This document shows, piece by piece, positions 16,138-50,690 of a DNA stretch of 64,000 nucleotides. The position numbers and the translations under genes were made by a program. How positions within the stretch are numbered: the stretch's first letter is position 1; the number at the start of each line of letters is the position of its first letter. The DNA comes from Mobula hypostoma (taxonomy: Eukaryota), in the NCBI RefSeq assembly GCF_963921235.1, contig NC_086097.1, positions 108,254,001 to 108,318,000 of the forward strand, in the 5' to 3' direction. The notes beneath the pieces are model-generated. The model saw nothing but the letters and a program-made list of their open reading frames with translations, ran no database searches and had not been told where the DNA came from.

Positions 16138-17969
16138 CATAGAAACATAGAAAATAGGTGCAGGAGTAGGCCATTCGGCCCTTCGAGCTTTCACCGCCAT
16201 TCAGTATAGATCATGGCTGCTCATCTAACTCAGAACCCTGTACCAGCCTTCCCTCCATACCCCCTGATCCCTTTAGCCACAAGGGCCATATCTAACTCCC
16301 TCTTAAATATAGCCAATGAACGGGCCTCAGCTGTTTCCTGTGGCAGAGAATTCCACAGTTTCACCACTCTCTGTGTCAAGAAGTTTTTCCTCATCTCGGT
16401 CCTAAAAGGCTTCCCCTTTATCTTTAAACTGTGATCCCTCGTTCTGGACTTCCCCAACATTGGGAACAATCTCCCTGCAACTAGCCTGTTCAATCCCTTT
16501 AGAATTTTATACGTTTCAATAAGATCCCCCCTTAATCTTCTAAATTCCAGTGAGTATAAGCCTAGTCGATCCAGTCTTTTGTCATATGAAAGTCCTGCCA
16601 TCCCAGGAATCAATCTGGTGAACCTTCTTTGTACTCCCTGTATGGCAAGAATGTCTTTCCTCAGATTAGGGGACAAAAACTGCACACAATACTCCAGGTG
16701 TGGTCTCACCAAGGCCTTATACAACTGCAGTAGTACCTCCCTGCTCCTGTACTCGAATCCTCTCGCTATAAATGCCAGCATACCGTTCGCCTTTTTCACC
16801 ACCTGCTGTACCTGCATGCCCACTTTCAATGACTGGTGTACAATGACACCCAGGTCTCGTTGCACCTCCCCTTTTCCTAATTGGCCACCATTCAGATAAT
16901 AATCTGTTTTCCTGTTCTTGCCACCAAAGTGGATAACCTCACATTTATCCACATTAAATTGCATCTGCCATGAATTTGCCCACTCCCCTAACCTATCCAA
17001 GTCACCCTGCATCCTCTTAGCATCCTCCTCACAGCTAACACTGCTGCCCAGCTTCGTGTCATCTGCAAACTTGGAGATGCTGCATTTAATTCCCTTGTCT
17101 AAGTCATTAATATATATTGTAAACAACTGGGGTCCCAGCACTGAGCCTTGCGGTACCCCACTAGTCACTGCCTGCCATTCTGAAAAGGTCACGTTTATTC
17201 CCACTCTTTGCTTCCTGCCTGCCAACAAATTCTCTATCCACATCAATACCATACCCCCAATACCGTGTGCTTTAAGTTTGCACACTAATCTCCTGTGTGG
17301 GACCTTGTCAAAAGCCTTTTGAAAATCCAAATATACCACATCCACTGGTTCTCCCCTATCCACTCTACTAGTTACATCCTAAAAAAATTCTATGAGATTC
17401 GTCAGATGTGATTTCCCTTTCATGCTGACTTTGTCCGATGATTTCACCGCTTTCCAAATGCGCTGTTATCACATCTTTGATAACTGACTCTAGCAATTTC
17501 CCCACCACTGATGTCAGGCTAACTGGTCTATAATTCCCCGGTTTCTCTCTCCCTCCTTTTTTAAGAAGCGGGGTTACATTACATTAGCCACCCTCCCTTC
17601 AGGAACTAATCCAGAATCTAAAGAGTTTTGAAAAATGATCACTAATGCATCCACTATTTCTTGGGCTACTTCCTCAAGCACTCTGGGATGCAGACCATCT
17701 GGCCCTGGGGATTTATCTGCCTTCAATCCCTTCAATTTACCTAACACCACTTCCCTACGAACATGTATTTCACTCAGTTCCTCCATCTCACTGGACCCTC
17801 GGTCCCCTACTATTTCCGGAAGATTATTTATGTCCTCCTTGGTGAAGACAGAACCAAAGTAGTTATTCACTTGGTCTGCCATGTCCTTGTTCCCCATGAT
17901 CAATTCACCTGTTTCTGACATTTGTCTTAACCAATCTTTTTCTTTTCACATATCTATAAAAGCTTTTAC
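16138..17969 (-). mobile_element. Young 5'-truncated CR1 LINE
   Basis: Uninterrupted 377-aa RT/C-terminal ORF 16230-17363 (YLDFQKAFDKVPH, GVPQGSVLGP, KFADDTK); (CATAGAAA)n tail on plus strand. Confidence 0.95.
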
Positions 17970-19835: not shown

Positions 19836-20439
19836 CTAGTAGGCTAGATTGTACATTATGTGATAATGAAATGGGGATACTAGCAAATCAGTCGACTATG
19901 ATTTGTTAAAGTTCTTTTGTATTTCAGTTTAATTGAATGAAAATAAGAATCATATATTCAAATCAGGAGTAATGGTTAATATCCAACACTCTCCCAGCAT
20001 CGAGCTCCCTGTTACAGAAAGCATTTGTTGTTTGGCAGACTCAAAGAGAAATAGACAGCTGATTGCACTGTCTAACGAGATAACCACTCTGCTGTTAACG
20101 AGAGACTTCTATGACATTTCCAAAGCTCACTGGATACAACCACACACAACTTCCAAAGTACTTAGATTGCACTTGAATATTTGTGTGCTTTTACTAATTA
20201 AGATATTCATTTTAATGATGTCTCAGTTGCTTTCCTCTGGCAACACATTAAGAGTGTAAGTTTTGGGCTAGGTTTCACAGGCAACTGAAGGAAGGTTGAA
20301 GATTGGGGGAGGATGCACAGGTATACACACCTGGATAGACTGTATTCCCATGGACCTTTCAGAGAGACAAGTCCACCGGTGGCCTGTCGGGGGGTGTGTG
20401 TGTGTGTTTGTAATGTATGTGTGCGAATTGCTGGATGAG

Positions 20440-20960
20440 GTGAGGGCCTCCACTGGTCAAACTTGATCACGGATATTGCATCCTAGCTGTCTAGATAGAC
20501 AAGCCTGAGCAGTACGATATGGAGAGCAAGCTGTTGCGCATGTAGCAAGCTCTCCCTCTCCATGCATCTGGTGACCCAAAGGACCAGTAGAGACTGATAC
20601 AGTTTGTTACCAGAGGAGTCGCAGGAGTTGCCAGTCAGCATTGAACTCAATGTATGATTGCCTTAGGGACTCCAACTGCAGATTTTCCCTTGGGGTTTCT
20701 TCATGTGGGTATAGCCGCAAGGCAGCGGAGGTTTGAGATCAGAGTTTTCCTTCTCCTAGATGAGCTGCCAACCCTGGCTGATAAGCTTCATCTGCCCGAA
20801 GCAACTGGTTTTAAGGCGCCAGTAACCTGGCTTTGCCTCTTCTGTCAGTAGAAACTGTTCCGCCGGGCTTAGTAGCTAAGCCACACATGAAGGCCAGGAA
20901 CTGAACTTGGTTGTCAGAGGCTATTTGAGGCACATGCCATTGGGAGCATTTAATAGGCTA
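20440..20960 (-). mobile_element. Probable RTE-derived non-autonomous element
   Basis: TTTTCCTTCTCCTAGATGAGCTGCCAACC resembles the antisense of RTE 5' regions (recall only); no ORF support. Confidence 0.4.
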
Positions 20961-22059
20961 TAACAACCTTAAGGAGGGTAAGAAGTAAAATTAGGGGCCT
21001 GTTTTGCTGTTGTTATTTTGTTAGTGTTGTTGTTGCTGCTTGCTGAACATAGTAGGCATGCTATGTTGGTGCCAGTGTTGGTGTCAGAATATGTTGTGAC
21101 TCTGAAGGACCAGCCCAGCACATCCTTCAGTATGTTGGTTGTTAACACAAGCAATGCATTTCACTGTGTATTTCAATGTACATGTGGTAAATAAATCTGA
21201 ACTTTCTACCTTGACTTCTGCAAAGATTGATGTTGACAAGAGCTCAGCTGAGAGAGCCACCAAAGGCATGTTATCTTCCCTGGGACAACCTTCAGCAACA
21301 CACAGGCCCAGACTGCTGTCACTGTGAAGGTTCAGATCATCATCACTGTCAGATTCTGAGCATCAGGATCATTCCAAATGGCTACAGAAAAACAGCTATG
21401 TATCGCAGTTTGTTGCTCACCACAATCTTTGGGACATTATACATTTTTATTATTCTAGGACCAATCTCCAGTATTTTTATTTCAGTGAGGAGCAGGTGAT
21501 ATTACATGCACAGTGGTGATTTGCTACCATTCCAGCCTTCCACAAGTTTCAGAGTGTCATCAGCTCAACTCATGACCATGTTGCTTCACTGAGAAAATCC
21601 CAAGCTTTGCAGTAAAGGAAAGGACGACCTCTCCCTCTAGATCTAAATAGCTAATGAATATATTTTGCATGGTCTGTGCCACATTTCATGGAAGCTCCCA
21701 GGATATCAGGATTCATTCGTTCTTCACTTGTCAGACATTTCCCTAAGGACTAGATCTTGGGCGACAATGGCTACTCACTCTTTAAGTAACTTCCAAAATC
21801 TTTACAGACTACAGTTATTACAGGTGAGTATTAGGACAAAGGGAGACAGGATGCGAACTGATCAGTAGTAGAAAATGTCATACGTCTTTTCAAATTAAAA
21901 GACCCACATCTCCAGCAAACCATGGGGGTGCTTGAGTGTGGAGACTGGAGTTTTGCCTTTCATACTTCACACCTCTCCAACAGGAGGTCTGAAACCATGC
22001 TCAGGAAAAGGCCAGTTAGAAGTGAGGAACAAGAAAACAATTGTCCCTCGGAAAATAAT

Positions 22060-22420
22060 GTCAAAGTTGAAAGTGAATTTATAATCACAGTACATGTACA
22101 TTATATTACCATATACTATTTGGGAGTCACCTTCTTGCAGGCATTTACAGGAAAGAAGGAAATACAATAGAATTTATGAAAAACCATACATCACCATACA
22201 AACAGCCAATAAGTAAAAGAAGATAAATCGTACAAAGAAATAATATTGAGACTATAAGTTGTAAAGAGTCCTTGGAAATGAGTTGGTAATTTGTAGAATC
22301 AGTTCAGAGTTGTGGTGAGTGAAGTTATCCAGTCCGGTTCAGAAGCTTGATGGTTGTAGGATAATAACTGCTCCTGAACCTGGTGGTGTGGCACCTAAGG
22401 CTCCTGTACGTCTTGCGAGA
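22060..22420 (-). mobile_element. Rex1/Babar-like 3' end
   Basis: CTCCTGAACCTGGTGGTGTGGCACCTAAGGCTCCTGTAC is the antisense of the YRSL..HTTRFR motif region. Confidence 0.6.
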
Positions 22421-22671
22421 GGAGCAGTCTTCTTGAATGGAGACAAGAGTGCCTAGTGAAGTGGCTCAACAAGCTCAGAGCTGGAACAGCACAGGGCATT
22501 GACCATGTGTAGGATTTCCAAATTTTCAGGAATAAGAGAACCATGGCTAAACTTGTTTTGGATTGTGACATTCAGTTGGTCATTTTGAGAAAGACAATGA
22601 TTATTTAATAATGGAAGCTTACAACTGGCACGATCAATTTTCACTCTCCTCCTGTAAATCAAGTGTCCACT

Positions 22672-23290
22672 TAGACAAAAAATGCTGAAGGAACTCAGCA
22701 GGTCAAACAGTATCTATGAAAGTGAGTAAACAGTTGACATTCAAGCCAAGACCCTCCTTCAGGATTAGAAAGGAAGCGGGGAGAGGCCATAATAAGAAGG
22801 GGAGGGGAAGAAGTACAAACTGGAAAGTGATAGATGAAGTCAAGTGGATGGTGGTGGAGGGGGGAGAGAAGAAGTAAGAAGCTGGGAGGTGATAGGTGGA
22901 AAAGGAAAAGGACTGGAGAAGAAGGAATCTGATAGGAGAAGAGAGTGAACTATGAGAGAAAGGGAAGAAGGGGGACACCAGGGAGGTGATAAGGCAGTGA
23001 GGAGAAGAGATTGGGGGAGCAGAGAGGCAACTGAAGAAGAGGGAAGGAGGAGGGGGAAAATTACCAGAATCTGGAGAAATCGCTATTCACTCCATCAGGT
23101 TAGAAGCTACCTAGACAGAATATGAAGTTTGCTCCTCCAATCTGAGGGTGGCCTCATCATAGCAGAAGAGGAGGCCATGGACAGACATGTCAGAATGGGA
23201 ATGGGGATTGGAATTAAACTGGCTGGCTTCTGGGAAATCTTGCTTTTTATGGATGGAGTGAAGGCACTCAATGAATCTCCATCAGGTCTC
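22672..23290 (-). mobile_element. Penelope-like element 3' fragment
   Basis: Antisense of the HSDMSVHGLL...EATLRLEEQ region, pyrimidine tract and tail seen at 29500-30041. Confidence 0.8.
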
Positions 23291-24338
23291 ACGTTGTATC
23301 CCCCAATCTATGTCATGCATTTGTGAGTTGTTGCTTGGGGTTTCCAGCATCTACTGAATCTTGTGTTCACTTCATACATTCCTGGTCAAGGAACTACTTT
23401 GGATGAATGCTATTTGATTTATTCATTCAGCTTTGAAGGGAAGATGGACATGAGACAACAGGTGATAAGCTGTGAAGGTCTAGCTCCACATTGTAGCCCC
23501 CTCTCTGTCTGTAGCCCAGCAGACAGTGGGAAATGGGATTGCGTTGTGAGTCAGCAACCATATTGCCGCTGCCTGGCTGCCATGGGGATTGTGCTTCAGT
23601 GGATTGAAATCCAGCTCTCCTTTCTATGCCACAAACTTCTGACAGAATTCCCAGCACTGCCTTTGGGAACTATGCAGATAATGCTTTTCCCGCACCTTTA
23701 GGCTTGGAAGCTAGAACGGCAATTTTGCAGAGAATGTTGTGATCTTTTCAGAGAATCCTCTTGTTCCAAAACTGAAGCAAACTAATATTTTTGTCTTGTG
23801 TTAAATGATTATTAATGTTGTTACTACCAAGCTAATTAGATGGTTTTAAATTCCTTTATTAGATATATTAATAGACTTGTGATATATTCAGGGTATGGTC
23901 AAAATTGGCAATTTCACAAAGCAATATAACTCAGTATTTACCTTTCATCATTCCTGTCCGCTTTAGTTCCTTTGCAGTTTCCCAGCTGAGGTATTGAATG
24001 TGACACTGAAAAAGGTGCCGTCTACCCTTGTATTTATCAAATTGAATGAATTTCAACAGAGTCAATTTGATATTACTTGCTGATTTATTTTGTCCAAACA
24101 ATGTGGCATTGAAAGAATAACTGAGAATTGGAATGGCTTGTGTTTTTCACAACTCTTATTCACATGCAAAACAAATCCACACCCCTAATGAAATAAATGA
24201 AGAGTAATGATGATTACTGTGATTCAGAGTAATCTGATGCTTGGGTATTCTTGAGAATCAGAATCGGGTTTAATATCACTGGCATATGTCGTGAAATCTG
24301 TTGTCTTTGCAGCAGCAGTACAATGCAATACATAATAC

Positions 24339-27300
24339 AAACATAGAAACATAGAAAATAGGTGCAGAAGTAGGCCATTCGGCCCTTCGAGCCTGCACCG
24401 CCATTTATTATGATCATGGCTGATCCTCCAACTCAGAACCCCGCCCGAGCCTTCCCTCCATACCCCCTGATCCCTTTAGCCAGAAGGGCCATATCTAACT
24501 CCCTCTTAAATATAGCCAATGAACTGGCCTCAACTGTTTCCTGTGGCAGAGAATTTCACAAATTCACCACTCTCTGTGTGAAGAAGTTTTTCCTAATCTC
24601 GGCCCTAAAAGGCTTCCCCTCTATCCTCAAACTGTGACCCCTCATTCTGGACTTCCCCAACATCGGGAACAATCTTCCTGCATCTAGCCTGTCCAATCCC
24701 TTTAGGATTTTATACGTTTCAATCAGATCACCCCTCAATCTTCTAAATTCCAACGAGTACAAGCCCAGTTCATCCAGTCTTTCTTCATATGAAAGTCCTG
24801 CCATCCCAGGAATCAATCTGGTGAACCTTCTTTGTACTCCCTCTATGGCAAGGATGTCTTTCCTCAGATTAGGGGACCAAAACTGCACACAATACTCCAG
24901 ATGTGGTCTCACCAAGGCCTTGTACAACTGCAGTAGTACCTCCCTGCTCCTGTACTCGAATCCTCTCGCTATAAATGCCAGCATACCATTCGCCTTTTTC
25001 ACCGCCTGCTGTACCTGCATGCCCACTTTCAATGACTGGTGTATAATGACACCCAGGTCTCGTTGCACCTCCCCTTTTCCTAATCGGCCACCATTCAGAT
25101 AATAATCTGTTTTCCTATTTTTGCCACCAAAGTGGATAACTTCACATTTATCCACATTAAATTGCATCTGCCATGAATTTGCCCACTCACCCAACCTATC
25201 CAAGTCACTCTGCATCCTCTTAGCATCCTCCTCACAGCTAACACTGCCACCCAGCTTCGTGTCATCTGCAAACTTGGAGATGCTGCATTTAATTCCCTCA
25301 TCCAAGTCATTAATATATATTGTAAACAACCGGGGTCCCAGCACTGAGCCTTGTGGTACCCCACTAGTCACCGCCTGCCATTCTGAAAAGGTCCCGTTTA
25401 TTCCCACTCTTTGCTTCCTGTCTGCTAACCAATTTTCCATCCACATCAATACCTTACCCCCAATACCGTGTGCTTTAAGTTCGCACACTAATCTCCTGTG
25501 TGGGACCTTGTCAAAAGCCTTTTGAAAATCCAAATATACCACATCCACTGGTTCTCCCCTATCCACTCTACTAGTTACATCCTCAAAAAATTCTGAGATT
25601 CGTCAGACATGATTTTCCTTTCACAAATCCATGCTGACTTTACCGCTTTCCAAATGTGCTGTTATCACATCTTTGATAACTGACTCCAGCAGTTTCCCCA
25701 CCACCGACGTTAGGCTAACCGGTCTATAATTCCCCGGTTTCTCTCTCCCTCCTTTTTTAAAAAGTGGGGTTACATTAGCCACCCTCCAATCCTCAGGAAC
25801 TAGTCCAGAATCTAACGAGTTTTGAAAAATCATCACTAATGCATCCACTATTTCTTGGGCTACTTCCTTAAGCACTCTAGGATGCAGACCACCTGGCCCC
25901 GGGGATTTATCTGCCTTCAATCCCTTCAATTTACCTAACACCACTTCCCTACTAACATGTATTTCGCTCAGTTCCTCCATCTCACTGGACCCTCTGTCCC
26001 CTACTATTTCTGGAAGATTATTTATGTCCTCCTTAGTGAAGACAGAACCAAAGTAATTATTCAATTGGTCTGCCATGTCCTTGCTCCCCATAATCAATTC
26101 ACCTGTTTCTGTCTATAGGGGACCTACATTTGTCTTTACCAGTCTTTTCCTTTTTACATATCTATAAAAGCTTTTACAGTCAGTTTTTATGTTCCCTGCC
26201 AGTTTTCTCTCATAATCTTTTTTCCCCTTCCTAATTAAGCCTCCTCTGCTGAACTCTGAGTTTCTCCCAGTCCTCAGGTGAGCCACTTTCTCTGGCTAAT
26301 TTGTATGCTTCTTCTTTGGAATTGATACTATCCCTAATTTCTCTTGTCAGCCACGGGTGCACTACCTTCCTTGATTTATTCTTTTGCCAAACTGGGATGA
26401 ACAATTGTTGTAGTTCATCCATGCAACCTTTAAATGCTTGCCATTGCATATCCACCGTCAATCCTTCAAGTGTCATTTGCCAGTCTATCTTAGCTAATTC
26501 ACATCTCATACCTTCAGTCACCCCTCTTTAAGTTCAGAACCTTTGTTTCTGAATTAACTATGTCACTCTCCATCTTAATGAAGAATTCCACCATATTATG
26601 GTCACTCTTACCCAAGGGGCCTCTCACGACAAGATTGCTAATTAACCCTTCCTCATTGCTCAAAACCCAGTCCAGAATAGCCTGCTCTCTAGTTGGTTCC
26701 TCGACATGTTGGTTCAAAAAACCATCCCGCATACATTCCAAGAAATCCTCTTCCTCAGCACCTTTACCAATTTGGTTCACTCAATCTACATGTAGATTGA
26801 AGTCACCCATTATAACTGCTGTTCCTTTATTGCACACATTTCTAATTTCCTGTTTAATACCATCTCCGACCTCACTACTACAGTTAGGTGGCCTGTACAC
26901 AACTCCCACCAGCGTCTTCTGCCCCTTAGTGTTACGCAGCTCTACCCATATCGATTCCACATCTTCCCGGCTTATGTCCTTCCTTTCTATTGCGTTAATC
27001 TCTTCTTTAACCAGCAACGCCACCCCACCTCCCCTTCCTTCATGTCTATCCCTCCTGAATATTGAATATCCCTGAACGTTGAGCTCCCATCCTTGGTCAC
27101 CCTGGAGCCATGTCTCTGTGATCCCAACTATATCATAATCATTAATAACAATCTGCACTTTCAATTCATCCACCTTATTACGAATGCTCCTTGCATTGAC
27201 ACACAAAGCCTTCAGGCGCTCTTTTACAACTCACTTAGCCCTTATACAATTATGTTGAAAAGTGGCCCTTTTTAATGCTTGCCCTGGATTTGTCGGCCTG

Positions 27301-27485
27301 CCACTTTTACTTTTCTCCTTTGTACTTTTTGCTTCTACCCTCACTTTACACTCCTCTGTCTCTCTGCACTAGTTTCCATCCCCCTGTTGTGAACTAACCT
27401 CCTCACGCCCAGCCTCTTTAATTTGATTCCCACCCCCCAACCATTCTAGTTTAAAGTCACCTCAGTAGCCCTCGCTAATCTCCCT
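24339..27485 (-). mobile_element. Young CR1 LINE with essentially complete ORF2 (APE endonuclease + RT) broken by a few frameshifts
   Basis: ORFs 26781-27206 (NARSIRNK, GITETWL, VGVVYRPP, MGDFN), 26514-26780 (SDHN), 26231-26521, 25621-26097, 24556-25566; (CATAGAAA)n tail. Confidence 0.97.
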
Positions 27486-27521
27486 AAATTACAGATTACA
27501 GTACGTGTGTACATATACAGT

Positions 27522-27523
27522 GA

Positions 27524-27568
<45 letters not shown>

Positions 27569-27572
27569 TATA
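27522..27572. repeat. (TA)n/(CA)n microsatellite; its other half lies at 32621-32668
   Basis: Direct reading; the Tc1 sits in a TA of this tract. Confidence 0.9.
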
Positions 27573-27733
27573 CAATGGCATGCAAAAGTTTGTGCACCCC
27601 TGGTCAAAATTTTGGAATCTCTGTTACTGTGAATCGCTAAGCGAGTAAAAGATGAACTGATTTCCAAAAGGCATAAAGTTAAAGATGACACATTTCTTTA
27701 ATATTTTAAGCAAGAAAACTTGTTTATTTCCAT

Positions 27734-30674
27734 ATAACCATATATAACTATATAACAATTACAGCATGGAAACAGGCTATCTCGGCCCTTCTGGTCCGTG
27801 CCGAACTCTTACTCTCACTGACCTGCACTCAGCCCATAACCCTCCATTCCTTTCCTGTCCATATAGCTGTCCAGTTTAACTTTAATCGACAACATCGAAC
27901 CTGCCTCAACCACTTCTGCTGGAAGCTCGTTCCACACAGCTACCACTCTCTGAGTAAAGAAGTTCCCCCTCATGTTACCCCTAAACTTTTGCCCTTTAAC
28001 TCTCAACTCATGTCCCCTTGTTTGAATCTCTCCCACTCTCAATGGAAAAAGCCTATCCACCTCAACTTTATCTACGTCAACTCTATCTATCCCCCTCATA
28101 ATTTTAAATACCTCTATCAAGTACCCCCTCAACCTTCTACACTCCAAAGAATAAAAACCCAACTTGTTCAACCTTTCTCTGTAACTTAGGTGACGAAACT
28201 CTGGTAACATTCTAGTAAACCTTCTCTGTACTCTCTCTATTTTGTTGACATCTTTCCTATAATTCGGTGACCAAAACTGCACACAATACTCCAAATCTGG
28301 CCTCACCAATGCCTTGTACATTTTTAACATTACATCCCAACTCCTATACTCAATGCTCTGATTTATAAAGGCCAGCATACCAAAAGCTTTCTTCACTACC
28401 CTATCCACATGAGATTCCACCTTCAGGGAACTATGTACCATTATTTCTTGAACCCTCTGTTCTACTGCATTCTTCAATGCCCTACGATTTACCATGTATG
28501 TCCTATTTTGATTAGTCCTACCAAAGTGTAGCACCTCACATTTATCAGCATTAAACTCCATCTGCCATCTTTCAGCCCACTCTTCTAACTGGCCCAAATC
28601 TCTCAGCAAGCTTTGAAAACCTACTTCATTATCCACAACGCCACCTATCTTAGTATCATCTGGATACTTACTCATCCAATTTACCACCCCATCATCCAGA
28701 TCATTCATGTATATGACAAATAACACCAGACCCAGTACAGATCCCTGAGGCACACCACTAGTCACCGGCCTCCTGACTCTCACAGCTATCTGGACTATTC
28801 CTCTTCTCACCCTGTCTCTTGCAAAAACGCCATCCCCTTCTCGCAATTCCTCCGTCTCCGCCGCATCTGCTCTCAGAATGAGGCTTTTCATTCTAGGACG
28901 AGGGAGATGTCTTCATTTTTTAAAGAAAGGGGCTTCCCTTCCTCCACTATCAACTCTGCTCTTAAACGCATCTCCCCCATTTCACGTACATCTGCTCTCA
29001 CTCCATCCTCCCACCACCCCACTAGGAATAGGGTTCCCCTGGTTCTCACCTACCACCCCACCAGCCTCCGGGTCCAACATATTATTCTCCGTAACTTCCG
29101 CCACCTCCAACGGGATCCCACCACTAAGCATATCTTTCCCTCCCCCCCCTCTCTGCATTCCGCAGGGATCGCTCCCTACACAACTCCCTTGTCCATTCGT
29201 CCCCCCCATCCCTCCCCACTGATCTCCCTCCTGGCACTTATCCGTGTAAGCGGAACAAGTGCTACACATGCCCTTACACTTCCTCCCTTACCACCATTCA
29301 GGGCCCCAAACAGTCCTTCCAGGTGAGGCATCACTTCACCTGTGAGTCGACTGGGGTGATATACTGCGTCCGGTGGTCCCGATGTGGCCTTTTATATATT
29401 GGTGAGACCCGACACAGACTGGGAGACCGCTTTGCTGAACATCTACGCTCTGTCCGCCAGAGAAAGCAGGATCTCCCAGTGGCCACACATTTTAATTCCA
29501 CATCCCATTCCCATTCTGACATGTCTATCCACGGCCTCCTCTACTGTAAAGATGAAGCCACACTCAGGTTGGAGGAACAACACCTTATATTCCGTATGGG
29601 TAGCCTCCAACCTGATGGCATGAACATTGACTTCTCTAACTTCCGCTAGGCCCCACCTCCCCCTCGTACCCCATTTGTTACTCTTTTTTATGCACACATT
29701 CTTTCTCTCACTCTCCTTTTTCTCCCTCTGTCCCTCTGAATATACCTCTTGCCCATCCTCTGGGTCACCCCCCCCCTCCGTCTTTCTTCCCGGACCTCTT
29801 GTCCCATGATCCTCTCGTATCCCCTTCTGCCTATCACCTGTCCAGCTCTCGGCTCCATCCCTCCCCCTCCTGTCTTCTCCTATCATTTTGCATCTCCCCC
29901 TCCCCCTCCAGCTTTCAAATCCCTTACTCACTCTTCCTTCAGTTAGTCCTGACGAAGGGTCTCGGCCTGAAACGTGACTGCGCCTCTTCCTATAGATGCT
30001 GCCTGGCCTGCTGCGTTCACCAGCAACTTTGATGTGTGTTGCTCCAATCTGACAAACCACTTTCCACCACCACTCTCTGGCGTCTCCCATCCAGCCAATG
30101 CTGAATCCATTTTACTACTTCAATATTAATACCTAATGATTGAACCTTCCTAACCAACCTTCCGTGTGGGACCTTGTCAAAGGCCTTACTGAAGTCCATA
30201 TAGACAATATCCACCGCTTTACCCTCGTCAACATTCCTAGTAACCTCTTCAAAAAATTAATAAGATTTGTCAAACATGACCTTCCACACACAAATCCATG
30301 TTGACTGTTCCTAATCAGATCCTGTCTATCCAGATAATCCAGAATAAGTCCATCCCTAAGAATACTTTCCATCAATTTACCCACCACTGATGTCAAACTC
30401 ACAGGCCGATAATTGCTAGGTTTACTCTTAGAACCCTTTTTAAACAATGGAACCACATGAGCAATATGCCAATCCTCCGGCACCATTCCCGTTTCCAATG
30501 ACATTTGAAATATTTCTGTCAGAGCCCCTGCTATTTCCACACTAACTTCCCTCAATGTCCTGTCAGGACACGGAGACCTATCCACTTTTATATTCCTTAA
30601 AAGTTCCAGTACTACTTCTTCAATCATCATAGTTTCCATAACTTCCCTACCCGTTTCCCTTACCTTACACAGTT
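27734..30674 (-). mobile_element. CR1 LINE (second subfamily) inserted in the left Tc1 TIR
   Basis: 7-bp duplication TTTCCAT (27727-27733, 30675-30681); ORFs 30133-30681, 30017-30214 and the CR1 part of 27815-28891. Confidence 0.93.
28774..30041 (+). mobile_element. Penelope-like element 3' part (RT thumb, GIY-YIG endonuclease, tail) inserted in CR1
   Basis: DSHSYLDYSSSHPVSCKNAIPFSQFLRLRRICS; ORF 29323-29649 GVIYCVRWSRCGLLYIGETRHRLGDRFAEH; CTCC on both sides (28770-28773, 30042-30045). Confidence 0.93.
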
Positions 30675-30961
30675 TTTCCATCTTTTACAGTTTCAAAATA
30701 ACAAAAAAGGAAAAGAACCTGAAGCAAAAGTTTGGGCACCCTGCATGGCAGTACTTAGTAACACCCCCTTTAGCAAGTATCACAGCTTGTAAGCGCTTTT
30801 TGTAGCCAGCTAAGAGTCTTTCAATTCTTGTTTGGGGGACTTTCGCCCATTCTTCCTTGCAAAAGGCTTCTAGTTCTGTGAGATTCTTGGGCTGTCTTGC
30901 ATGTACTGCTCTTTTGAGGTCCATCCACAGATAGACCTCAAAAAGTTCTATTCAAAAGGTT

Positions 30962-31571
30962 CAAAGGAACATCTAAACAAACCTGATGCATTTTGGAAAC
31001 AAGTCCTGTGGACTGATGAAGTTAAAATAGAACTTTTTTGGCCGCAATGAGAAAGGGTATGTTTGGAGAAAAAAAGGTGAAGAATTTCATGAAAAGAACC
31101 CCTCTCCAACTGTTAAGCACAGGGGTGGATCAATCATGCTTTGGGCTTGTGTTGCAGCCAGTGGCACGGGGAACATTTACTGGTAGAGGGAAGAATGAAT
31201 TCAATTAAATACCAGCAAATTCTAGAAGCAAGCATCTCACCGTCTGTAAAAAAAAAGCCAAAGATGAAAAGAGGATGACTTCTACAACAGGATAATGATC
31301 CTAAACACACCTCAAAATCCACAATGGACTACCTCAAGAGGCACAAGCTAAAGGTTTTGCCATGGTCCTCACAGTCCCCTGACCTAAACATCATCGAAAA
31401 TCTGTGGATAGACCTCAAAAGAGCAGTGCATGCAAGACGGCCCAAGAATCTCACAGAACTAGAAGCCTTTTGCAAGGCAGAATGGGCGAAAGTCCCCCAA
31501 ACAAGAATTGAAAGACTCTTAGCTGGCTACAAAAAGCGCTTACAAGCTGTGATACTTGCTAAAGGGGGTGT
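30962..31571 (+). pseudogene. Tc1 transposase catalytic-domain remnant, DD34E
   Basis: KEHLNKPDAFWKQVLWTDE, TVKHRGGSIMLWAC, QQDNDPKHTS, SPDLNIIENLW; 34 residues between second D and E; frameshifts and a stop; N-terminus absent. Confidence 0.92.
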
Positions 31572-32247
31572 GGGATGGTTCCTCTCTGTTCTGGTGGTCA
31601 AAGTGAGTATAGAAGGCATTGAACTCCTCTGGACGCAAAGCTCTGCTGTCCTCTATGTTGCAAAATTTAACTTTGTAGTAGGTTATGGCATTCAAATCCT
31701 GCCACAGCTGTCAAGCATCCCTCATTAATTCCAGCCTAGTATAGAATCTCCTCTTCGCCCGAGAGATGGCTTTCTGGACATCATTTCTGCACCTCTTGAT
31801 CTCCAGACTTGACTGCCTATGACCTGGCTCTCAGCAGGCTCCAAATTTCATTGTTCATCCAGAGCTTCTGATTGGGGTAAACCCTGAACGATTTTGTGTA
31901 AAGTCTGTAACAATCCTGATGTAGTCACTCAGGTCCTCAGATGAGTCCTTGAACATGGCCAAGTCTACTGACTCAAGGCAATCCTGTAACCGCTCCTCAG
32001 CCTCCTGCGACCACCTCTGGTTGTCTTGATCTCTGGAGCTTTGGTCTTTAGGCTTTGTCTGTATGCAGGAAGTAGGAGTACAGCCAAATTGGCAGGGCTT
32101 TCTTCAGATAGACCTGGTTAAAGTCACAAACTATAATTTCAAACGCGTCGAGTTGAACCGCTTCTTGTTTTCAGACAGCATGGTGCAGTTCCACGAGTGC
32201 TTGCTTATAACCGGCCACACTGTGGTCAGGAGCACGGATAAGAATTC
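31562..32247 (-). repeat. 686-bp inverted copy of 36099-36784
   Basis: Reverse-complement match with 2 mismatches by eye; ORFs 32063-32341(+) and 36071-36283(-) share their first 62 aa apart from one residue. Confidence 0.97.
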
Positions 32248-32372
32248 CATGGTTTGCTGGAGATGTGGGTCTTTTAATTTGAAAAGACGTATGCCATTTT
32301 CTACTACTGATCAGTTCACATCCTGTCTCCCTTTGTCCTAATACTCACCTGTAATAACTGTAGTCTGTAAAG
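32247..32372 (-). repeat. 126-bp inverted copy of unique sequence 21800-21925
   Basis: CCATGGTTTGCTGG...TACTCACCTGTAATAACTGTAGTCTGTAAAG is the reverse complement of 21800-21925, 2 mismatches by eye. Confidence 0.96.
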
Positions 32373-32636
32373 CTGTGAAAGAGGGTGCTAGTAGGTACTG
32401 CCATGCAGGGTGCCCAAACTTTTGCTTCAGGCCCTTTTCCCTTTTTGTTATTTTGAAACTGTAAAAGATGGAAATAAAAAAGTTTTCTTGCTTAAAATAT
32501 TAAAGAAATGTGTCATCTTTAACTTTATGCCTTTTGGAAATCAGTTCATCTTTTACTCGTTTAGCTATTCACAGTAACAGAAGTTTTGATCAGGGGTGTC
32601 CAAAGCTTTGCATGCCACTGTATGTATGTATATGTA

Positions 32637-32668
<32 letters not shown>

Positions 32669-33448
32669 GTTAAATAAGTACTGCAACAATAACAGAAACA
32701 AAAAAGTAATAAGGTTGTGTTCATGGGTTCAATGTCCATTCAGAAATCAGAAGGCAGGAGGTGAATAAGCGGTCCCTGAATTGCTTCGTGTGTGCCTTCA
32801 GGTTTCTCCATTCATTCCTGATGGTAACAATGACAACTTGGGTGATGGGGATCCTTGGGATGCCATCTATTTTGAGGCATCACTCCTTGAAGAGGTCCTG
32901 GACACTGCAGAGGCTGGTGCCCATGATGGAGCCGACGAAGTTTACAACTGTCTGCAGCTTACTTTGATCATGTGCAGTAGCTCCCCTCCCCCCAGACTAG
33001 ACAGTGATGCACCCAGCCTGAGTGCCCTCCACGGTACATCTGTAGAAATTTGCATATTGTGGAACCAGAGAATTGTGGTCTGTTTTATTAGTTTGTTCTA
33101 TTGATTTCAATTGCAATAAATTTCAGAAGCAGAATGTAACACTATCCCACTTGATATCACATACTTCGCCCTACTGACTGGCTGACCAGGGATGAAAATT
33201 GTATCTATCTTTGTATGTATGTTGTAAGGAAGGAGACCGTGTTGTGACTAACTTAAACTAAAGGAACAAGGATTTGGGAGAACGGACAAAATTGCAGGGA
33301 AGAATATTAAGTGGTGAGGTTGTTCACAGCAGAAGGGTATTCTTTCTGGGATCATGCAAGGCTACAACCAGAAAAATGCCTCATCCAAAGAAAAATGAAG
33401 AGACCTTTAACTTAACCGTATCTGTAAAACCTATCAAATACTTAAAAT

Positions 33449-33662
33449 GGCAGCATCTATGGAAAGAGCAAACAGTCGATATTTTGGGCTGAGACCTTTC
33501 ATCAGGACTCTGCACCGTGTTCTTTGTCAGGACTTCAAGGGTCTCAATCCAAAACGTGAACTGTTTGCTCTGTTCCGTAGATGCTGCCTGACCTGCTGAG
33601 TTCACCCAGCATTTTGTGTGTGTTGCTTTGATTTCCAGCATCTGCAGAATCTCTTGTATTTG
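33449..33662. mobile_element. Second head-to-head pair of Penelope tails
   Basis: GGCAGCATCTATGGAAAGAGCAAACAGT (33449-) pairs with ACTGTTTGCTCTGTTCCGTAGATGCTGCC (-33588). Confidence 0.7.
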
Positions 33663-34057
33663 TAATATTTAAAATACTTTGATTGTTTAAATACTTGAAA
33701 GCAAAAAAAAGGTCAAAACATTTAAAATTAATAAAAATAAAATACTTAAATAGCTAAGTAAAAACTAAAGATAAAATATGCTAGAATACTTAAAGCCTAA
33801 AATTAGGGTGGATAAATTTCCAGGACATGACAAGGTATCCCCTTGGACCTTGTGGGAGGCTAATACAGAAATTGCAAAAGTCCTGGTAGAGATATTTAAA
33901 ATGCCCTTTCCCATGGGTGAGATGCCAGAGGGATGGAGGATGCTAATGTTATTTTCTCATCAAAGAGTTCACTGGAAAAATTTAGGCTACTAAACCTGAC
34001 ATTAGTAGTGGGTAAATTATTAGAAGGTTTTTTTTTAGGGGACAGGATTTATAAGTA

Positions 34058-34692
34058 CAGTGGATTCCAGTTAATTTGGCCATCATTAGTTGGGGCGGCC
34101 GCTTATTTGGGACTACTCTTAAGAAAAACAACAAAACTAATTGAGAAAATTTGGGACACTATGCTGCTTAATTGGGACAGGAGACTGTTGCCAAACAGTT
34201 TTTAACTAGTGTCAGTCACATGCACTTGTGTGGCAGTTAGACACTACACCATGCTTAGAGTGAATAGTTTTTAAATAATGTCAGTGGCATGTACGTAGTT
34301 ATGTTATCCATTTGGGCCAATGGACGCTGATTCAAAAAACAATGATTTTTGATCATTTTGGTTTGAAGACAGTCTATTATCTGCACTAGGTGCCTATGCT
34401 GATTTTGCTTATTTACATTCAATCAAAAGAACATAGTAAAGTACACAGGACGAATTCCTCTGTCGATAACTATTTGGAACTAATACATAGTTTTACATAC
34501 TGTAGTAGTATTGGTAGTGTTCTAATTTGTTCTGTATTTCATATAAATAATAATTTTTACACAGTTACATGGTAGTTTGTCTTTTTGAAAGCTTTTTAAC
34601 TATTTTCATGAAACTTCGGCTAATTGGGGCGGCAGTTTAATTGGGCTAAAATGTACTAGTCCTGAGATGTCCCAATTAACTGGAATCCACTG
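34058..34692. mobile_element. Tc1/mariner-superfamily (Tigger/pogo-like) MITE, 635 bp
   Basis: TIR CAGTGGATTCCAGTTAATT (19 bp perfect, 27 bp with 2 mismatches); TA on both sides; no ORF. Confidence 0.88.
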
Positions 34693-35545
34693 TACAGGTA
34701 TTTGGATAGACAACACCTGGTCAGGGATAGTTAGCCTGGCTTTGTGCATGGTAGATTCTCCCTAACCAATCTTACAGAGATTCTGAAGGCTGTTACCGGG
34801 AAAGCTGATGAAGGCAAGGTAGTGGATGTTGTCTACATGGACTTTAGCAAAGCTTTTGACAGAGTCCTGCACGGGAGGCTGGTCAAGAAGGTTCAAGTCA
34901 CTTGGCGTTCAGGATGAGAGAGTAAAATGGATTCAACATTGTCTTTGCCTGTGACGTGGTGTGATGGGTCCACCTTCCTTGTCACTTATGATAATATGGT
35001 AAACCGGATAATATGACAATATGGTAATATGGATGATAATATGGTAAACTGGATCAGCAGATATGCAGATAACACCAAGATGGGTAGTCTACCTGGCAGC
35101 AAGGAAAGCTATCAAAGTTGGCAGAGGAATCTGAACCACTTGGAAAAATAGACCGAAAAATGGCAGATACAAATTAATGCAGATGAGTGTCAGGTGTTGC
35201 ATTTTGGGAGGGAAAAACAGGTTAGGACTTACACAATGAGCACTGTGCATGGAGCACAGTGGGTTCTGAAGAGTGCAGTAGAACAGAAGGATCTGGGAAT
35301 ATAGATCCATAATTCCTTGAAAGTGGAGTCACAGGTAGATGGGTCATAAAGAGAGCTTTTGGTATATTTGACCTTCATAAATCAAAGTATTCAGTACAGA
35401 AGTTGGGATTTTATATTGAAGTTGTATAAAACGCTGATGAGGTCTAATTTGGAGTATTGTGTGCAGGACTCGTCACCTACCTACAGGAAAGATATCAATA
35501 AGATGGTAAGAATTCAGAGAAAATTTATAAGGATGATGCTAGGAG

Positions 35546-38500
35546 TTTTCCTCTTAAATATACTCCTTTCGAAATACTTTCACTGCAATCTGCAGCATGT
35601 AAATTCCCTCTTAAAAAAGGACTACAAAATTATATCAGTGATCTTCAGAACTCGCATTTAATGGTTAAATGCAGAGCAGTTAAGCACGGTGGCTTTAAGG
35701 GTCAATACCAAAGCCGAAAATGTGGGAGGAGAGATGGAATTCTAACCAGGCTGAAGTGTAGATGGATGAGGCCTCTTCTGCCTTCCATCTTGTTAACGAA
35801 TGTGCAGTGACTTGCAAATAAGATTGACGGTCTCAGGGCAAGAATGCTCTATCAGAGGCTGATCTCTCAACTGTTTGTTGCATTGAGACTTGGTTAACAG
35901 CAAACACGCCAGACACAGCTATCCGACCAGGAGGTTTTACGATTTTCAGAATGAGTTGAACCTCAAATTCTGGTAAGGAAAATGGTGGCGGAGTGTGCTT
36001 TTTCGTGAATTCTCAGTGGTTCACGGGCACTGGTCAACTTCATCTTTCCCTGACTTGGAACAACTGATGATTAAATGTAGACCATTCTACAAGCTTCAGA
36101 ATTCTTATCCGTGCTCCTGACCACAGTGTGGCCGGTTATAAGCAAGCACTCGTGGAACTGCACCATGCTGTCTGTAAACAAGAAGCGGTTCAACTCGACG
36201 CGTTTGAAATTATAGTTTGTGACTTTAACCAGGTCTATCTGAAGAAAGCCCTGCCAATTTGGCTGTACTCCTACTTCCTGCATACAGACAAAGCCTAAAG
36301 ACCAAAGCTCCAGAGATCAAGACAACCAGAGGTGGTCGCAGGAGGCTGAGGAGCGGTTACAGGATTGCCTTGAGTCAGTAGACTTGGCCATGTTCAAGGA
36401 CTCATCTGAGGACCTGAGTGACTACATCAGGATTGTTACAGACTTTACACAAAGTCGTTCAGGGTTTACCCCAATCAGAAGCTCTGGATGAACAATGAAA
36501 TTTGGAGCCTGCTGAGAGCCAGGTCATAGGCAGTCAAGTCTGGAGATCAAGAGGTGCAGAAATGATGTCCAGAAAGCCATCTCTCGGGCGAAGAGGAGAT
36601 TCTATACTAGGCTGGAATTAATGAGGGATGCTTGACAGCTGTGGCAGGATTTGAATGCCATAACCTACTACAAAGTTAAATTTTGCAACATAGAGGACAG
36701 CAGAGCTTTGCGTCCAGAGGAGTTCAATGCCTTCTATACTCACTTTGACCACCAGAACAGAGAGGAACCATCCCACACCCCCTTATCTCCTGATGACCTG
36801 ATGACAACATGATGTGCGGGCTGCCTTCAAGAGGGTGAATCCAAGGAAAGTATCCGGTCCGGACGGAGTACCTGGCCGAGTACTGAAGACCAGTGCTGAC
36901 TGGCTGGCATGTTCACAGATATCTTTAACCTCTCACTCCAGCAGTGTTTGGTACCCCACCTGCTTCAAGCAGGCACCAATCGTACCGGTGTCCAATAAGA
37001 GTGAGGTAACCTGTCTCAATGACTATCGCCCAGTGGCACTTACATCCACAGTGATGAAGTGTTTTGAGAGGCTGGTGTTGGAGCAGATCAGCTCCTGTAC
37101 AACTCCCCTACCGAAGCAACAAGTCTAGGGCAGATGTTCTCTCGTTGGCTCTTCACACAGCTCTGGAATATCTGTACAGGAAAGATACATACATCAGAAT
37201 GCTCTTTTATCGATTACAGCTCAGCATTCAACACCATCATCCCCTCAAAACTAATCAGTAAACTCCACTACCTGGGCTTCAATACCTCCTTGTGCAATTG
37301 GATCCTGGATTTCCTCACTTGAAGACCCCAGTCTGTTCGGGTTGGCAACAAATCTCATCCATGATCTCAATCAGCGCAGGAGCACCACAGGGATGTGTAC
37401 TTAGCCCCAGCTCTACTCGCTTTACACCTGTGACTGTGTGGCTGGTACTGCTCCAACACCATATACAAGTTTGCTGATGACACCACTGTTGTGGGCGTAT
37501 CAAAGGGGGTGATGAAACAGCATACAGGAGGGAGATTTAAAACTTGGCTGAGTGGTGTAATAACAACAACTTATCACTCAATGACAATAAGACCAACGAA
37601 CTGATTGTGGACTTCGGGACAGGAAAACCAGAGGTCCATGAGCCAGTAATCATCGGAGGATCAGAGGTAGAGAAGGTCAGTAACCTGAGTGTCACTCTCT
37701 CAGAGGACCTGTCCTGGACCCATCATATAAATATAATTGGAAAGAAAGCACGACAGCTCCTCTACTTCCTCAGGAGTCTGTGGAGGTTCGGCATGTCACC
37801 AAAAACCTTGGCAAACATTGACAGATATGTGGTGGAAAGTGTGATGATTGGCTGCATTATGGCCTGGTATGGAAAAACCAATGCCTTGAGTGGAAAATCC
37901 TACTACAGGTAGTGAATTTGACCCAGAACATCACAAGTTAAACCCTCCCAAACACTGAGCATATTTACATGAAACATTACAGTAGAAAAGCAGCATCCTT
38001 CATCAAAGACCCTCACCACTCAGGCCATGCTCTGTTCTCGCTGTTGCCTCAGGACCCACACCACCAGGTTCAAGAACAGTTACTACCTCTCAACTGTCAG
38101 GCTCTTGAACAAAAGAGGATAGCTAAACTCATTTAAGGACTCTGTTATATTGATGGATGTAATATTGTTATTTCACAAGACCATAGACAAAGGAGCAGAA
38201 GTCGGCCATTCGGCCTATCGAGTCTGCTCCGCTATTTTATCATGAGCTGATCTATTCTCCCATCTAGTCCCACTCCCCTGCCTTCTCACCATAACCTTTG
38301 ATGCCCTGGCTACTCAGATACCTATCAATCTCTGCCTTAAATACACCCAATGACTTGGCCTCCACTGCTGCCCGTGGTAACAAATTCCATAGATTCACCA
38401 CCCTCTGACTAAAAAAATTTCTTCGCATTTCTGTTCTGAATGGGCGCCCTTCAATCCTTATGTTATGCCCTCTCGTACCAGACTCCTCCATCATGGGAAA

Positions 38501-41467: not shown

Positions 41468-41765
41468 TATACCTCTTGCCCATCCTCTGGGTCACCCCCC
41501 CCCGTCTTTCTTCCCGGACCTCCTGTCCCATGATCCTCTCGTATCCCCTTTTGCCTATCACCTGTCCAGCTCTCTGCTCTATCCCTCCCCCTCCTGTCTT
41601 CTCCTATCATTTTGCATCTCCCCCTCCCCCTCCAGCTTTCAAATCCCTTACTCACTCTTCCTTCAGTTAGTCCTGACGAAGGGTCTCGGCCTGAAACGTC
41701 GACTGCGCCTCTTCCTATAGATGCTGCCTGGCCTGCTGCGTTCACCAGCAACTTTGATGTATGTT
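41468..41765 (+). mobile_element. Penelope tail fragment, nearly identical to 29741-30037
   Basis: ORFs 41467-41790 and 29443-30090 share long identical stretches. Confidence 0.9.
41668..41705 (+). ncRNA. Minimal type I hammerhead ribozyme motif in Penelope tail
   Basis: TAGTC-CTGACGA-A-GGG(TCTCGG)CCT-GAA-ACGT-C-GACTG: stem I, conserved core, stem II, palindromic ACGU stem III, GUC triplet. Confidence 0.7.
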
Positions 41766-41949
41766 CCTTTATTCCCATTCTTTCTTTCAAAGGCGAATAC
41801 TAGAGGCAGAGCTAGCAACAGAGGTAGTAAACTCGTATCTTACAGTAGTGCCTGGTACAAAACTATATCAGAAGTTTTATTACATGATCTGCTCAGTTCC
41901 TAAAGACTTACTCAATTTGTCAACACCACATAAATCTTTAAGAATATAG

Positions 41950-49330: not shown

Positions 49331-50690
49331 GAGCTGGCCATTGAAGCTAATTAGAGCTTGTGACTCTATGTACAAGTGTGCAGCTGTGGTATCATCTCAG
49401 GCTTGTAGATGGTCTCAGAGGAGAATGTGGTCATGCAGTCATGAATGTACAGGGTGTAAAGTAGGGGGCTGAGGGCACAACTTTGGAGTATAATTATAGT
49501 GGTGGTGTTCTCTGTCCATACTGATTGTGGTCGGTTAGTCAGGAAGTCAAGAATCCAGTTGCTGAGGAAGGTGTTGACTCCCAGGCTCTGGAGTTCAGCG
49601 ATGAATTTGCTTGGAGTTCCAGTAATAAAGGTGAAGCTGTAATCAATAAACTGTAAGGGGGTTTCGACTTTTATGTTACTGCGGAGGCTAATTAAAGTGG
49701 CATCTTTGTTATGTTAATGTGGGGAATGCGGCTTTGTTCTGTTAAACGCTGAGAAAGTTTGAGCTAGCAGCTTGTTTTGGTTTAGAGGGTGATAAGAGGG
49801 TGCTATTAACCAATTGGGATAGTTGTTATAGTTTTGGTGTATTTGAAGATACTGTATGCGCGGGGTTTTGGGGCTGAAGGCAGGAGAGTGAGACAGAGGA
49901 TGGACCAGGTGCTGTGATGTCCGCTAACGGGGTCAGACCCCAAGAGGGGTGTTCGGCGAGGAGAGGAGATGGAGATGGACTCGTGTGGAGTGTCTGGTCG
50001 GCCACCGTTGTTGGTCCCAGGCAGCCGGTCGAGGTGGTCCGAGGGGTCGCAGGGTGAAGAAGGTCCTTGAGCTCCAATTGTTTTGTGCACGAAGAGATTG
50101 AACTTTGATAAGTGTGGCGCCTTTTATTTTCCTTTTATATTTTATTCTCTCTTAATTATATAGTTCCAGTAATATCTATAAACTGTAAATCATTTAATTG
50201 CATCTGGTGTATTGTCTGTTATTTGGGCGGGGTGGGGTATATCACACAGCATCCACACAAATGAATTATCCAGTTTGGCGGGGCCCAGGCTGTTTCCCTA
50301 GACGACAGCGAGCCGAGTGACCCTGACATACACTAGGTGACCTTACTGTCCAGACGCTCCAGAGAAAAGTGTAGGGCTAAAAAGATGGCACCTGCCATAA
50401 GCCTGTTTCTGCAAATGGTGAATTGCAGTGGGTTGGGATTGTCAGGAAGGCCAGAATTAATGGGTGCCGTGACCAGCTTCCTGAAGCACTTCATAATGTG
50501 GATGTCAGAGTCGCTGGGTGGTAGTCATTAAGGCAGGTTATCTTGTTTTTCTTCTGTACTCTGTTGATAGTGGTCTTCTTAAAGCAGGTGAGAATCACAG
50601 ATTGAAGCAGGGAGAAATTAAAAATATCTGCAAGTAACCTCGGGAGCCGATCTGCACACTGTCTAAAGGTGCAGTCAGGGGATGAGTATA
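49330..50690 (-). mobile_element. Decayed Rex1/Babar RT fragment interrupted by a solo LTR
   Basis: GTCAGGAAGTCAAGAATCCAGTTG (NWILDFLT) left of the LTR and GAAGCACTTCATAAT (IMKCF) right of it. Confidence 0.7.
49652..50330. mobile_element. Solo LTR, right end damaged
   Basis: Begins TGTAAGGGGGTTTC; colinear with 62143-62825; no TSD found. Confidence 0.8.

Follow-up and report, generated by a model that had tools for sequence, protein, structure and literature searches.

An 811-nt insert interrupts the remnant of a Tc1-like transposon in the window (the whole 64,000-nt stretch of DNA analysed here) and consists of two inverted copies of neighbouring DNA, each with its donor. Most probably these were laid down in one transposition-independent repair event, by microhomology-guided serial template switching of the FoSTeS/MMBIR type, at a hairpin-prone fold-back Tc1 that was already long dead. 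The event is real and known in kind, and the fold-back remnant with its cargo has probably never moved: neither a captured gene nor any sign of spread was found in the data analysed. With every template still readable, it provides a clean and datable case, from the germ line, of a repair outcome that is already known, suitable for teaching or as a benchmark. The coordinates of the features are collected in Table 1.

Table 1 Features of the host element, the insert and the two donors (window coordinates)
Feature	Positions	Strand	Details
Donor 2	21800–21925	+	Single-copy DNA, 9,637 nt away from insert; no Pfam or Rfam matches
Left TA target site	27571–27572		Edge of TA/CA microsatellite; from sequence
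Left terminal inverted repeat, outer part	27573–27733	+	Against reverse complement of 32468–32620: 143 matches, 10 mismatches, 8 gap columns
LINE in left repeat, 5'-truncated, 2.9 kb	27734–30674	-	RVT_1; TTTCCAT duplicated at 27727–27733 and 30675–30681
Left terminal repeat, inner part	30675–30760	+	Inner direct repeat intact; 67/70 nt match reverse complement of 32398–32467
Inverted transposase 3' end (fold-back left arm)	30751–30932	-	168/172 nt match reverse complement of 31400–31571; tblastn
Fold-back joint	30933–30961		Filler templated from 31408–31421, reverse complement of 31026–31041, 9 nt without traced source
Frameshifted Tc1 transposase remnant	30962–31571	+	Residues about 133–337; Pfam DDE_3, E 1.6e-8
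Entry microhomology	31562–31571	+	10 nt, common to Tc1 and donor 1 (36775–36784)
Cargo 1	31562–32247	-	Inverted copy of 36099–36784, LINE-type repeat fragment; 684/686 identical
Cargo 2	32247–32372	-	Inverted copy of single-copy 21800–21925; 124/126 identical
Error-laden return patch	32370–32397	+	Re-copy of 31544–31571, 9-nt gap, 4 substitutions
Right terminal inverted repeat	32398–32620	-	Terminal CAG intact
Right TA target site	32621–32622		TA/TG microsatellite next
Donor 1	36099–36784	+	Within decayed LINE-type repeat; 3,727 nt away from insert

The insert had been described in an earlier note on this DNA, and self-BLAST of the window bore out its coordinates, lengths and orientation. Cargo 1 matches its donor at 99.7% over 686 nt and cargo 2 at 98.4% over 126 nt, each with 2 mismatches (at 31892, 32171, 32294 and 32318). 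The two cargo/donor pairs account for two of only four self-matches of at least 40 nt at 95% identity or above in the window, whose remaining copies of the donor-1 repeat reach 68–73% identity only. Both donors remain in place, 3.7 and 9.6 kb from the insert, as had been claimed. Cargo 1 comes from a dispersed repeat, presumably Rex (the label also used in the earlier note), so that dispersed repeat accounts for 686 of the 811 nt, the single-copy part being only 126 nt; depth over cargo 2 is 21.9 in run X1, against thousands for repeats. At 8 of the 10 variable sites listed for the repeat family, insert and donor 1 agree on a minority base; the count leaves out two further rows, one specific to organism B and one to the insert. 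Because these minority bases are shared, the local source of the cargo is confirmed, and the claim that it was copied from this locus rather than from a retrotransposed family copy stands.

A search for a host gene or captured exon with Pfam, which took in frames of at least 55 amino acids plus 13 candidate short exons, gave matches in 1/150, 5/78 and 0/13 frames, none of them a clear host exon. The six matching frames fall in reverse-transcriptase, endonuclease or DDE families (four) and in ALKBH8_N (two, one of these inside the LINE adjoining donor 1), and Rfam matched nothing within 20000–38000. At 21800–21829, donor 2 has the sole plus-strand CAGGTGAGT of the window, 16 nt past a TTTACAG and antisense in the cargo; this would make a candidate micro-exon, at about chance level.

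The junctions point to how the insert was made. The entry microhomology, AAGGGGGTGT, is present at both of the sites given for it in the earlier note and occurs in the 64 kb only at the Tc1 entry, in donor 1 and in the element's own left arm. Two-sided matches of at least 10 nt arise in 3.5e-5 of 200,000 random inverted site pairs, an overlap beyond chance of the kind expected at a breakpoint of a Pack-TIR (a terminal inverted repeat element with captured DNA). The 1-nt overlap at the middle junction and the 3-nt AAG overlap at the return also exist, as had been noted, but both are at chance level (0.44 and 0.057), and the return is not a clean rejoining at AAG. Here 32370–32388 re-copies Tc1 31544–31571 (28 nt) with 9 nt missing, and the patch at 32378–32397 differs from the left arm at 4 of 20 nt (32382, 32388, 32391 and 32394). 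In all four runs compared, loose contig ends show that family members continue past 31571 with TACTAAGTAC, as the left arm does, and the substitutions are therefore private to this junction. A cluster of 4 in 20 nt has a p of about 0.004–0.01 at background rates, for a window picked post hoc. When the window was searched for a further template of the 25-nt return patch, the element's own left arm came out best (18/25); a 12-nt match at 49794 does not extend.

Since the return re-copies Tc1 sequence with a gap and substitutions, a degenerate duplication does exist at the insertion site. No hallmark of retroposed or RNA-templated DNA was seen at the insert: there is no tail or poly(A), no clean target duplication and no GT-AG joint, the duplication being degenerate and the skipped stretch running from GG to AG. 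What is found is what FoSTeS/MMBIR would leave, namely multiple join-points from local templates with microhomology (overlaps of 10, 1 and 3 nt) and intact donors, together with replication errors clustered at a junction (the return has 4 substitutions and a 9-nt gap inside 28 nt). Microhomology-guided entry and serial template switching, as proposed in the earlier note, are thus supported by two local donors in the same orientation and by the 10-nt entry overlap.

The host element spans 27573–32620, with TA on either side, and lies within microsatellites that mirror each other, (TA)n(CA)n at 27528–27572 on the left and (TG)n(TA)n at 32621–32668 on the right. It has the Tc1-type DDE transposase sequence (DDE_3) of a Tc1-like (DD34E, IR-DR) transposon and, in degraded form, the TA duplication and terminal inverted repeats with inner and outer direct repeats. 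Base 3 of the left end is A where the right end has G (CAATG versus CAGTG), the left terminal repeat has 8 nt more than the right arm, and the right outer direct repeat shows 3 changes relative to the inner one. The LINE in the left repeat, which we take to be CR1-like, has a 7-nt target duplication and RVT_1 matches in 27818–28912 (E 2.8e-10) and in 30136–30684 (E 2.4e-4, below Pfam's cut-off). Nested within it, at about 28774–30043, is a further element, presumably GIY-YIG/Penelope-like, with CTCC at each end, in which a 173-aa frame gave no Pfam hit; the end of this element, 29741–30043, matches 41468–41768 at 96.7%.

The transposase remnant shows 50% identity (tblastn) to the ORF of a relative at locus L002, and its homologues make up 285 of 295 candidate proteins, the named ones being mostly Tc1-like or TCB1 transposases of fishes and amphibians. 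Among metagenome contigs, DNA relatives were found at 80 loci (best protein identity 66%), 5 of which were used, only for mapping missing parts. Residues 1–132 are absent and the remainder has frameshifts and a stop, so there is no intact transposase with a DNA-binding domain and the element is not autonomous. Between the inner left repeat and this remnant lies a second, inverted transposase 3' end, coding for residues 281–340 of the 340-aa L002 relative. Read from its sequence, therefore, the host element is a fold-back of two transposase 3' ends. The earlier note missed this fold-back, the LINE that splits the left repeat and the re-copying at the return.

The stretch 30675–31571 is predicted to fold into a 172-bp stem at -268 kcal/mol, with none of 20 shuffles equally stable. 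Family sequence ahead of 30962 is unlike that of this copy. Contigs with the joint 30939–31041 on opposite strands number two in run X1, four in X3, three in X5 and none in X9, and at the joint 32 contigs of X5 have loose ends equal to the reverse complement of what follows 31041. The fold-back joint contigs stem from other copies in which the left arm is longer, and a fold-back subfamily therefore exists. Its copies are built from two 3' ends separated by some 70 nt of spacer; others are seen in organisms A and B and none is listed in C. The Tc1 family as a whole (30962–31571 and 32390–32615) is extremely abundant in all three organisms, with a summed depth of 3e5–1e6 against a single-copy depth of 18.5 (X1), a figure that is not a copy number. 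We infer that about 360 nt of the left arm were later lost from the present copy, the filler copied from 31408–31421 staying behind; local-template patching would then have hit this fold-back copy twice, once in the arm filler and once in the cargo. The subfamily is the lead worth pursuing, and counting palindromic Tc1 copies genome-wide could test directly whether secondary structure in dead terminal inverted repeat elements drives capture.

The relative age of the capture can be gauged from divergence. Between cargo and donors, 4 of 811 nt differ (0.5%, CI 0.13–1.26%), and between the two arms, with the return cluster left out, 17 of 395 nt (4.3%; Fisher p 6.5e-6 against the cargo), although the arms may have differed already at insertion. 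Compared with the family majority, this copy differs at a minimum of 20 listed places in 610 nt, at least 12 of them at 95% of depth or more (p 7.6e-5 and 0.011). In a comparison of the flanks with older repeat copies, the right flank matched well and the left weakly. Divergence of the cargo is lower than that of the element by a factor of 4 to 9, and the closeness of the cargo to its donors, relative to that of the arms to each other, would make the capture several times younger than the element and place it long after insertion.

From the templates, their orientation, the overlaps, the errors, the anatomy and the relative age that can be observed, we infer a single replication-repair event in which synthesis stalled, or the DNA broke, within the palindrome arm, templates were switched three times and the restart was error-prone. 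A fold-back Tc1 with two 3' ends would have inserted at a TA, decayed, lost the 360 nt of its left arm with templated filler and, perhaps still before the capture, taken up the LINE in its left repeat. The remaining arms could form a hairpin, stalling or breaking a fork at 31571. The free end may then have annealed at 36775–36784 and copied 686 nt, after which the growing end would have jumped to 21925, copied 126 nt and returned via AAG to a point 28 nt behind the break, there to resume with a slip and four errors.

Contigs provide independent, if indirect, support. Of 23 sequencing runs listed, four from organism A contain about 0.7 of the sampled words and four from organism B about 0.47; four of the 23 were compared over 30856–32615, in every case as contigs: X1 and X3 (organism A; one sample, maybe the assembly's own), X5 (organism B, a close relative whose divergence, by word share, is very roughly 1.3%) and X9 (organism C, word share near 0.2). 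Organism A contigs branch exactly at the middle junction, 32247, which is where two records (6 and 14) stop and two others (7 and 15) start. Records 6, 7 and 15 have the insert's bases and record 14 deviates from them at one position; the organism A table of other letters also contains the donor's A at 32171. In X1 the donor-1 pieces have depths of 37, 36.6 and 35.6 against 18.5 for the donor-2 contig, and in X3 18.6 and 16.3 against 4.81, giving donor-1 ratios of 2.0 (X1), about 3.6 (X3) and 2.3 (pooled). These depths fit the donor plus one extra copy, with a second extra copy possible at the ratio and low depth of X3. The excess depth over 32272–32276, by arithmetic on bin means, is about 40 in X1, 11 in X3 and 0 in X5, as expected if the branch gives rise to two contigs in A and to none in B. 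Among the 32 pieces listed, out of about 60,500, none crosses one of the three junctions with 31 letters to its left and 31 to its right; beyond the third breakpoint, records 7 and 15 continue into donor flank. The insert is real, on contig support that is good but indirect.

No cargo junction was seen in organism B, in one run of contigs and with an orthologous Tc1 indistinguishable from other copies. Its record 23 (1,119 nt) crosses both donor-2 breakpoints unbranched and its record 22 (333 nt) extends 54 nt beyond the donor-1 breakpoint, though the latter may be a paralogue (12 other letters in 279); organism B carries the donor's base at 32171 and at 32294. In organism C (X9) most of cargo 2 is without contig cover, and such a contig hole is no evidence.

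Depth also bears on an alternative in which a chromatid or homologue first lost 21926–36098 (14.2 kb, the whole Tc1 included) and a single inverted switch then copied 811 nt across the resulting joint into the intact allele. Read on the plus strand, the cargo is 21800–21925 joined to 36099–36784, in genomic order and in one orientation as at a deletion joint, and one switch fewer is needed. Such an allele was not seen in these contigs, however, and those leaving the middle junction in X1 sum to about 40 against a single-copy depth of 18.5, so the 21925/36099 joint is an extra copy and not an alternative allele. Two rare events at one locus would also be required, and we consider this order of events very improbable.

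A second alternative, in line with the inference of the earlier note that the element could move host DNA, is a transposase-driven origin: excision in trans, abortive gap repair capturing flanking DNA, and a Pack-Tc1 that could be mobilised or had been already. TA and recognisable termini are present on both sides, the inner direct repeats are intact, the family is very abundant by summed depth (no measure of copy number) and fold-back relatives occur elsewhere. Formally, then, both termini and the TA do survive as that note had it, but base 3 of the left end is mutated, both outer direct repeats are changed and the left repeat is split by 2.9 kb of LINE. In Sleeping Beauty work, ends with such damage block mobilisation. 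The break is moreover internal, with no Tc1 sequence lost, and abortive gap repair after excision is made unlikely by the much younger age of the capture compared with the element. A mobilised element would be expected in several copies, each with its own target duplication and at a distance from the donor; such copies were not found in these data: the donors are adjacent, at 3.7 and 9.6 kb, and the depth ratio (2.0 in X1, 2.3 pooled) fits one extra copy. For an element 5 kb long with a left terminus in this state, the movement of host DNA in trans envisaged in that note finds no support, and we regard a transposase-driven origin as very improbable.

Equally little credence attaches to an RNA patch, in which a broken end annealed by 10 nt and primed reverse transcription on a plus-strand transcript spliced from about 21926 to 36100, giving an antisense insert in cis like those of class 2 TSIPs. 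Both pieces are antisense and colinear, and AG exactly ends the skipped stretch (36098–36099), as it does in 0.127 of 55,443 random jumps with a 1-nt overlap, an AG end with GT within 2 nt occurring in 0.038 of such jumps; RNA-derived templated insertions have been described (PMC5110952). The skipped stretch (21926–36098) nevertheless begins with GG rather than GT, which lies two bases further on, the acceptor has an unremarkable pyrimidine tract (30% of 4,448 AG sites do as well), and a consensus donor site at 21821–21829, within the donor-2 piece, went unused. The Pfam scan yielded no host gene, and the DNA search listed no RNA dataset containing the locus. Were the RNA patch true, a vertebrate germ line would have kept a heritable trace of a break repaired in cis on an RNA template, across a 14-kb splice. 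Least credible is an assembly artefact or haplotype chimera, for although no listed contig spans a junction and the first and third junctions are without direct read support, the graph branches exactly at 32247 in two runs, insert-specific bases occur in contigs, donor-1 depth is doubled, four substitutions separate copy from donors and the return junction is structured.

Template switching in a dead element has close published parallels. Tan et al. (2021) described single-copy Pack-TIRs formed by transposition-independent gap filling, with 370 cases in 100 animals, 115 of them TcMariner; donors lay less than 15 kb away in 160 of 281 and microhomology was present in 190, and from breakpoint positions these authors proposed that the breaks are possibly induced by secondary structure (PMC8277862). 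As in those elements, the cargo here sits in an old terminal inverted repeat element, with an internal break, microhomology at a breakpoint, capture long after insertion, a single copy and cis donors under 15 kb away that are still in place. Its 811 nt lie between 31571 and 32373, two parts of one element, and so within the 100–5,000 nt that define internal cargo, and the parental copies, compared within the window, are well above 90% identical. The present element differs, on the part of that study available for comparison, in having two donors in series, in a return that duplicates Tc1 sequence rather than deleting it, and in its host, a fold-back one of whose repeats contains a LINE. Repeat DNA makes up 85% of the cargo and donor 1 lies within a dispersed repeat, whereas Tan et al. 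require non-TE cargo with no TE within 100 nt of the parental copy, a filter on parental flanks that would discard it. The element thus works like a single-copy Pack-TIR yet fails their non-TE filter and is best filed as a locally templated insertion.

The earlier suggestion that such capture is not well described for a vertebrate Tc1 is not supported, as single-copy TcMariner Pack-TIRs are known in animals, including zebrafish Pack-TC1DR3 with a donor about 2.6 kb away (Supplementary Data 1, row 363; PMC8277862). No two-donor vertebrate Pack-Tc1 was found in a literature search that covered one file of 12 in the supplement of Tan et al. and left subscription papers mostly outside its scope.

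Other systems share some of the features. At human PLP1 junctions, where iterative FoSTeS/MMBIR switching is accompanied by replication errors (small indels and single-base changes), BAB8949 has an 861-bp insertion from two flanking regions with likely three switches (PMC6902434). That insert lies at the joint of a large pathogenic duplication, whereas ours stands alone in a transposon fossil and persists in the germ line. Pack-MULE and Pack-TYPE elements of plants, like the present one, are terminal inverted repeat elements with a TA target site and pieces from more than one locus, multi-locus cargo being found in 19% of rice Pack-Mariner elements (PMC8903248); they often hold gene fragments and many are amplified by transposition, whereas here neither a gene fragment nor a second copy was found in the data analysed. 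Class 2 TSIPs resemble the insert in an intact donor plus one extra copy, in the lack of poly(A), in microhomology and in being break-repair patches, but their donors are distant and are argued to be RNA-derived (PMC5110952), while here neither donor is as much as 10 kb away and DNA is the better-fitting template.

Elsewhere in the window, 16138–17969 and 24342–26177 are two copies of one LINE, 92% identical over 1.85 kb, on the same strand and 8 kb apart.
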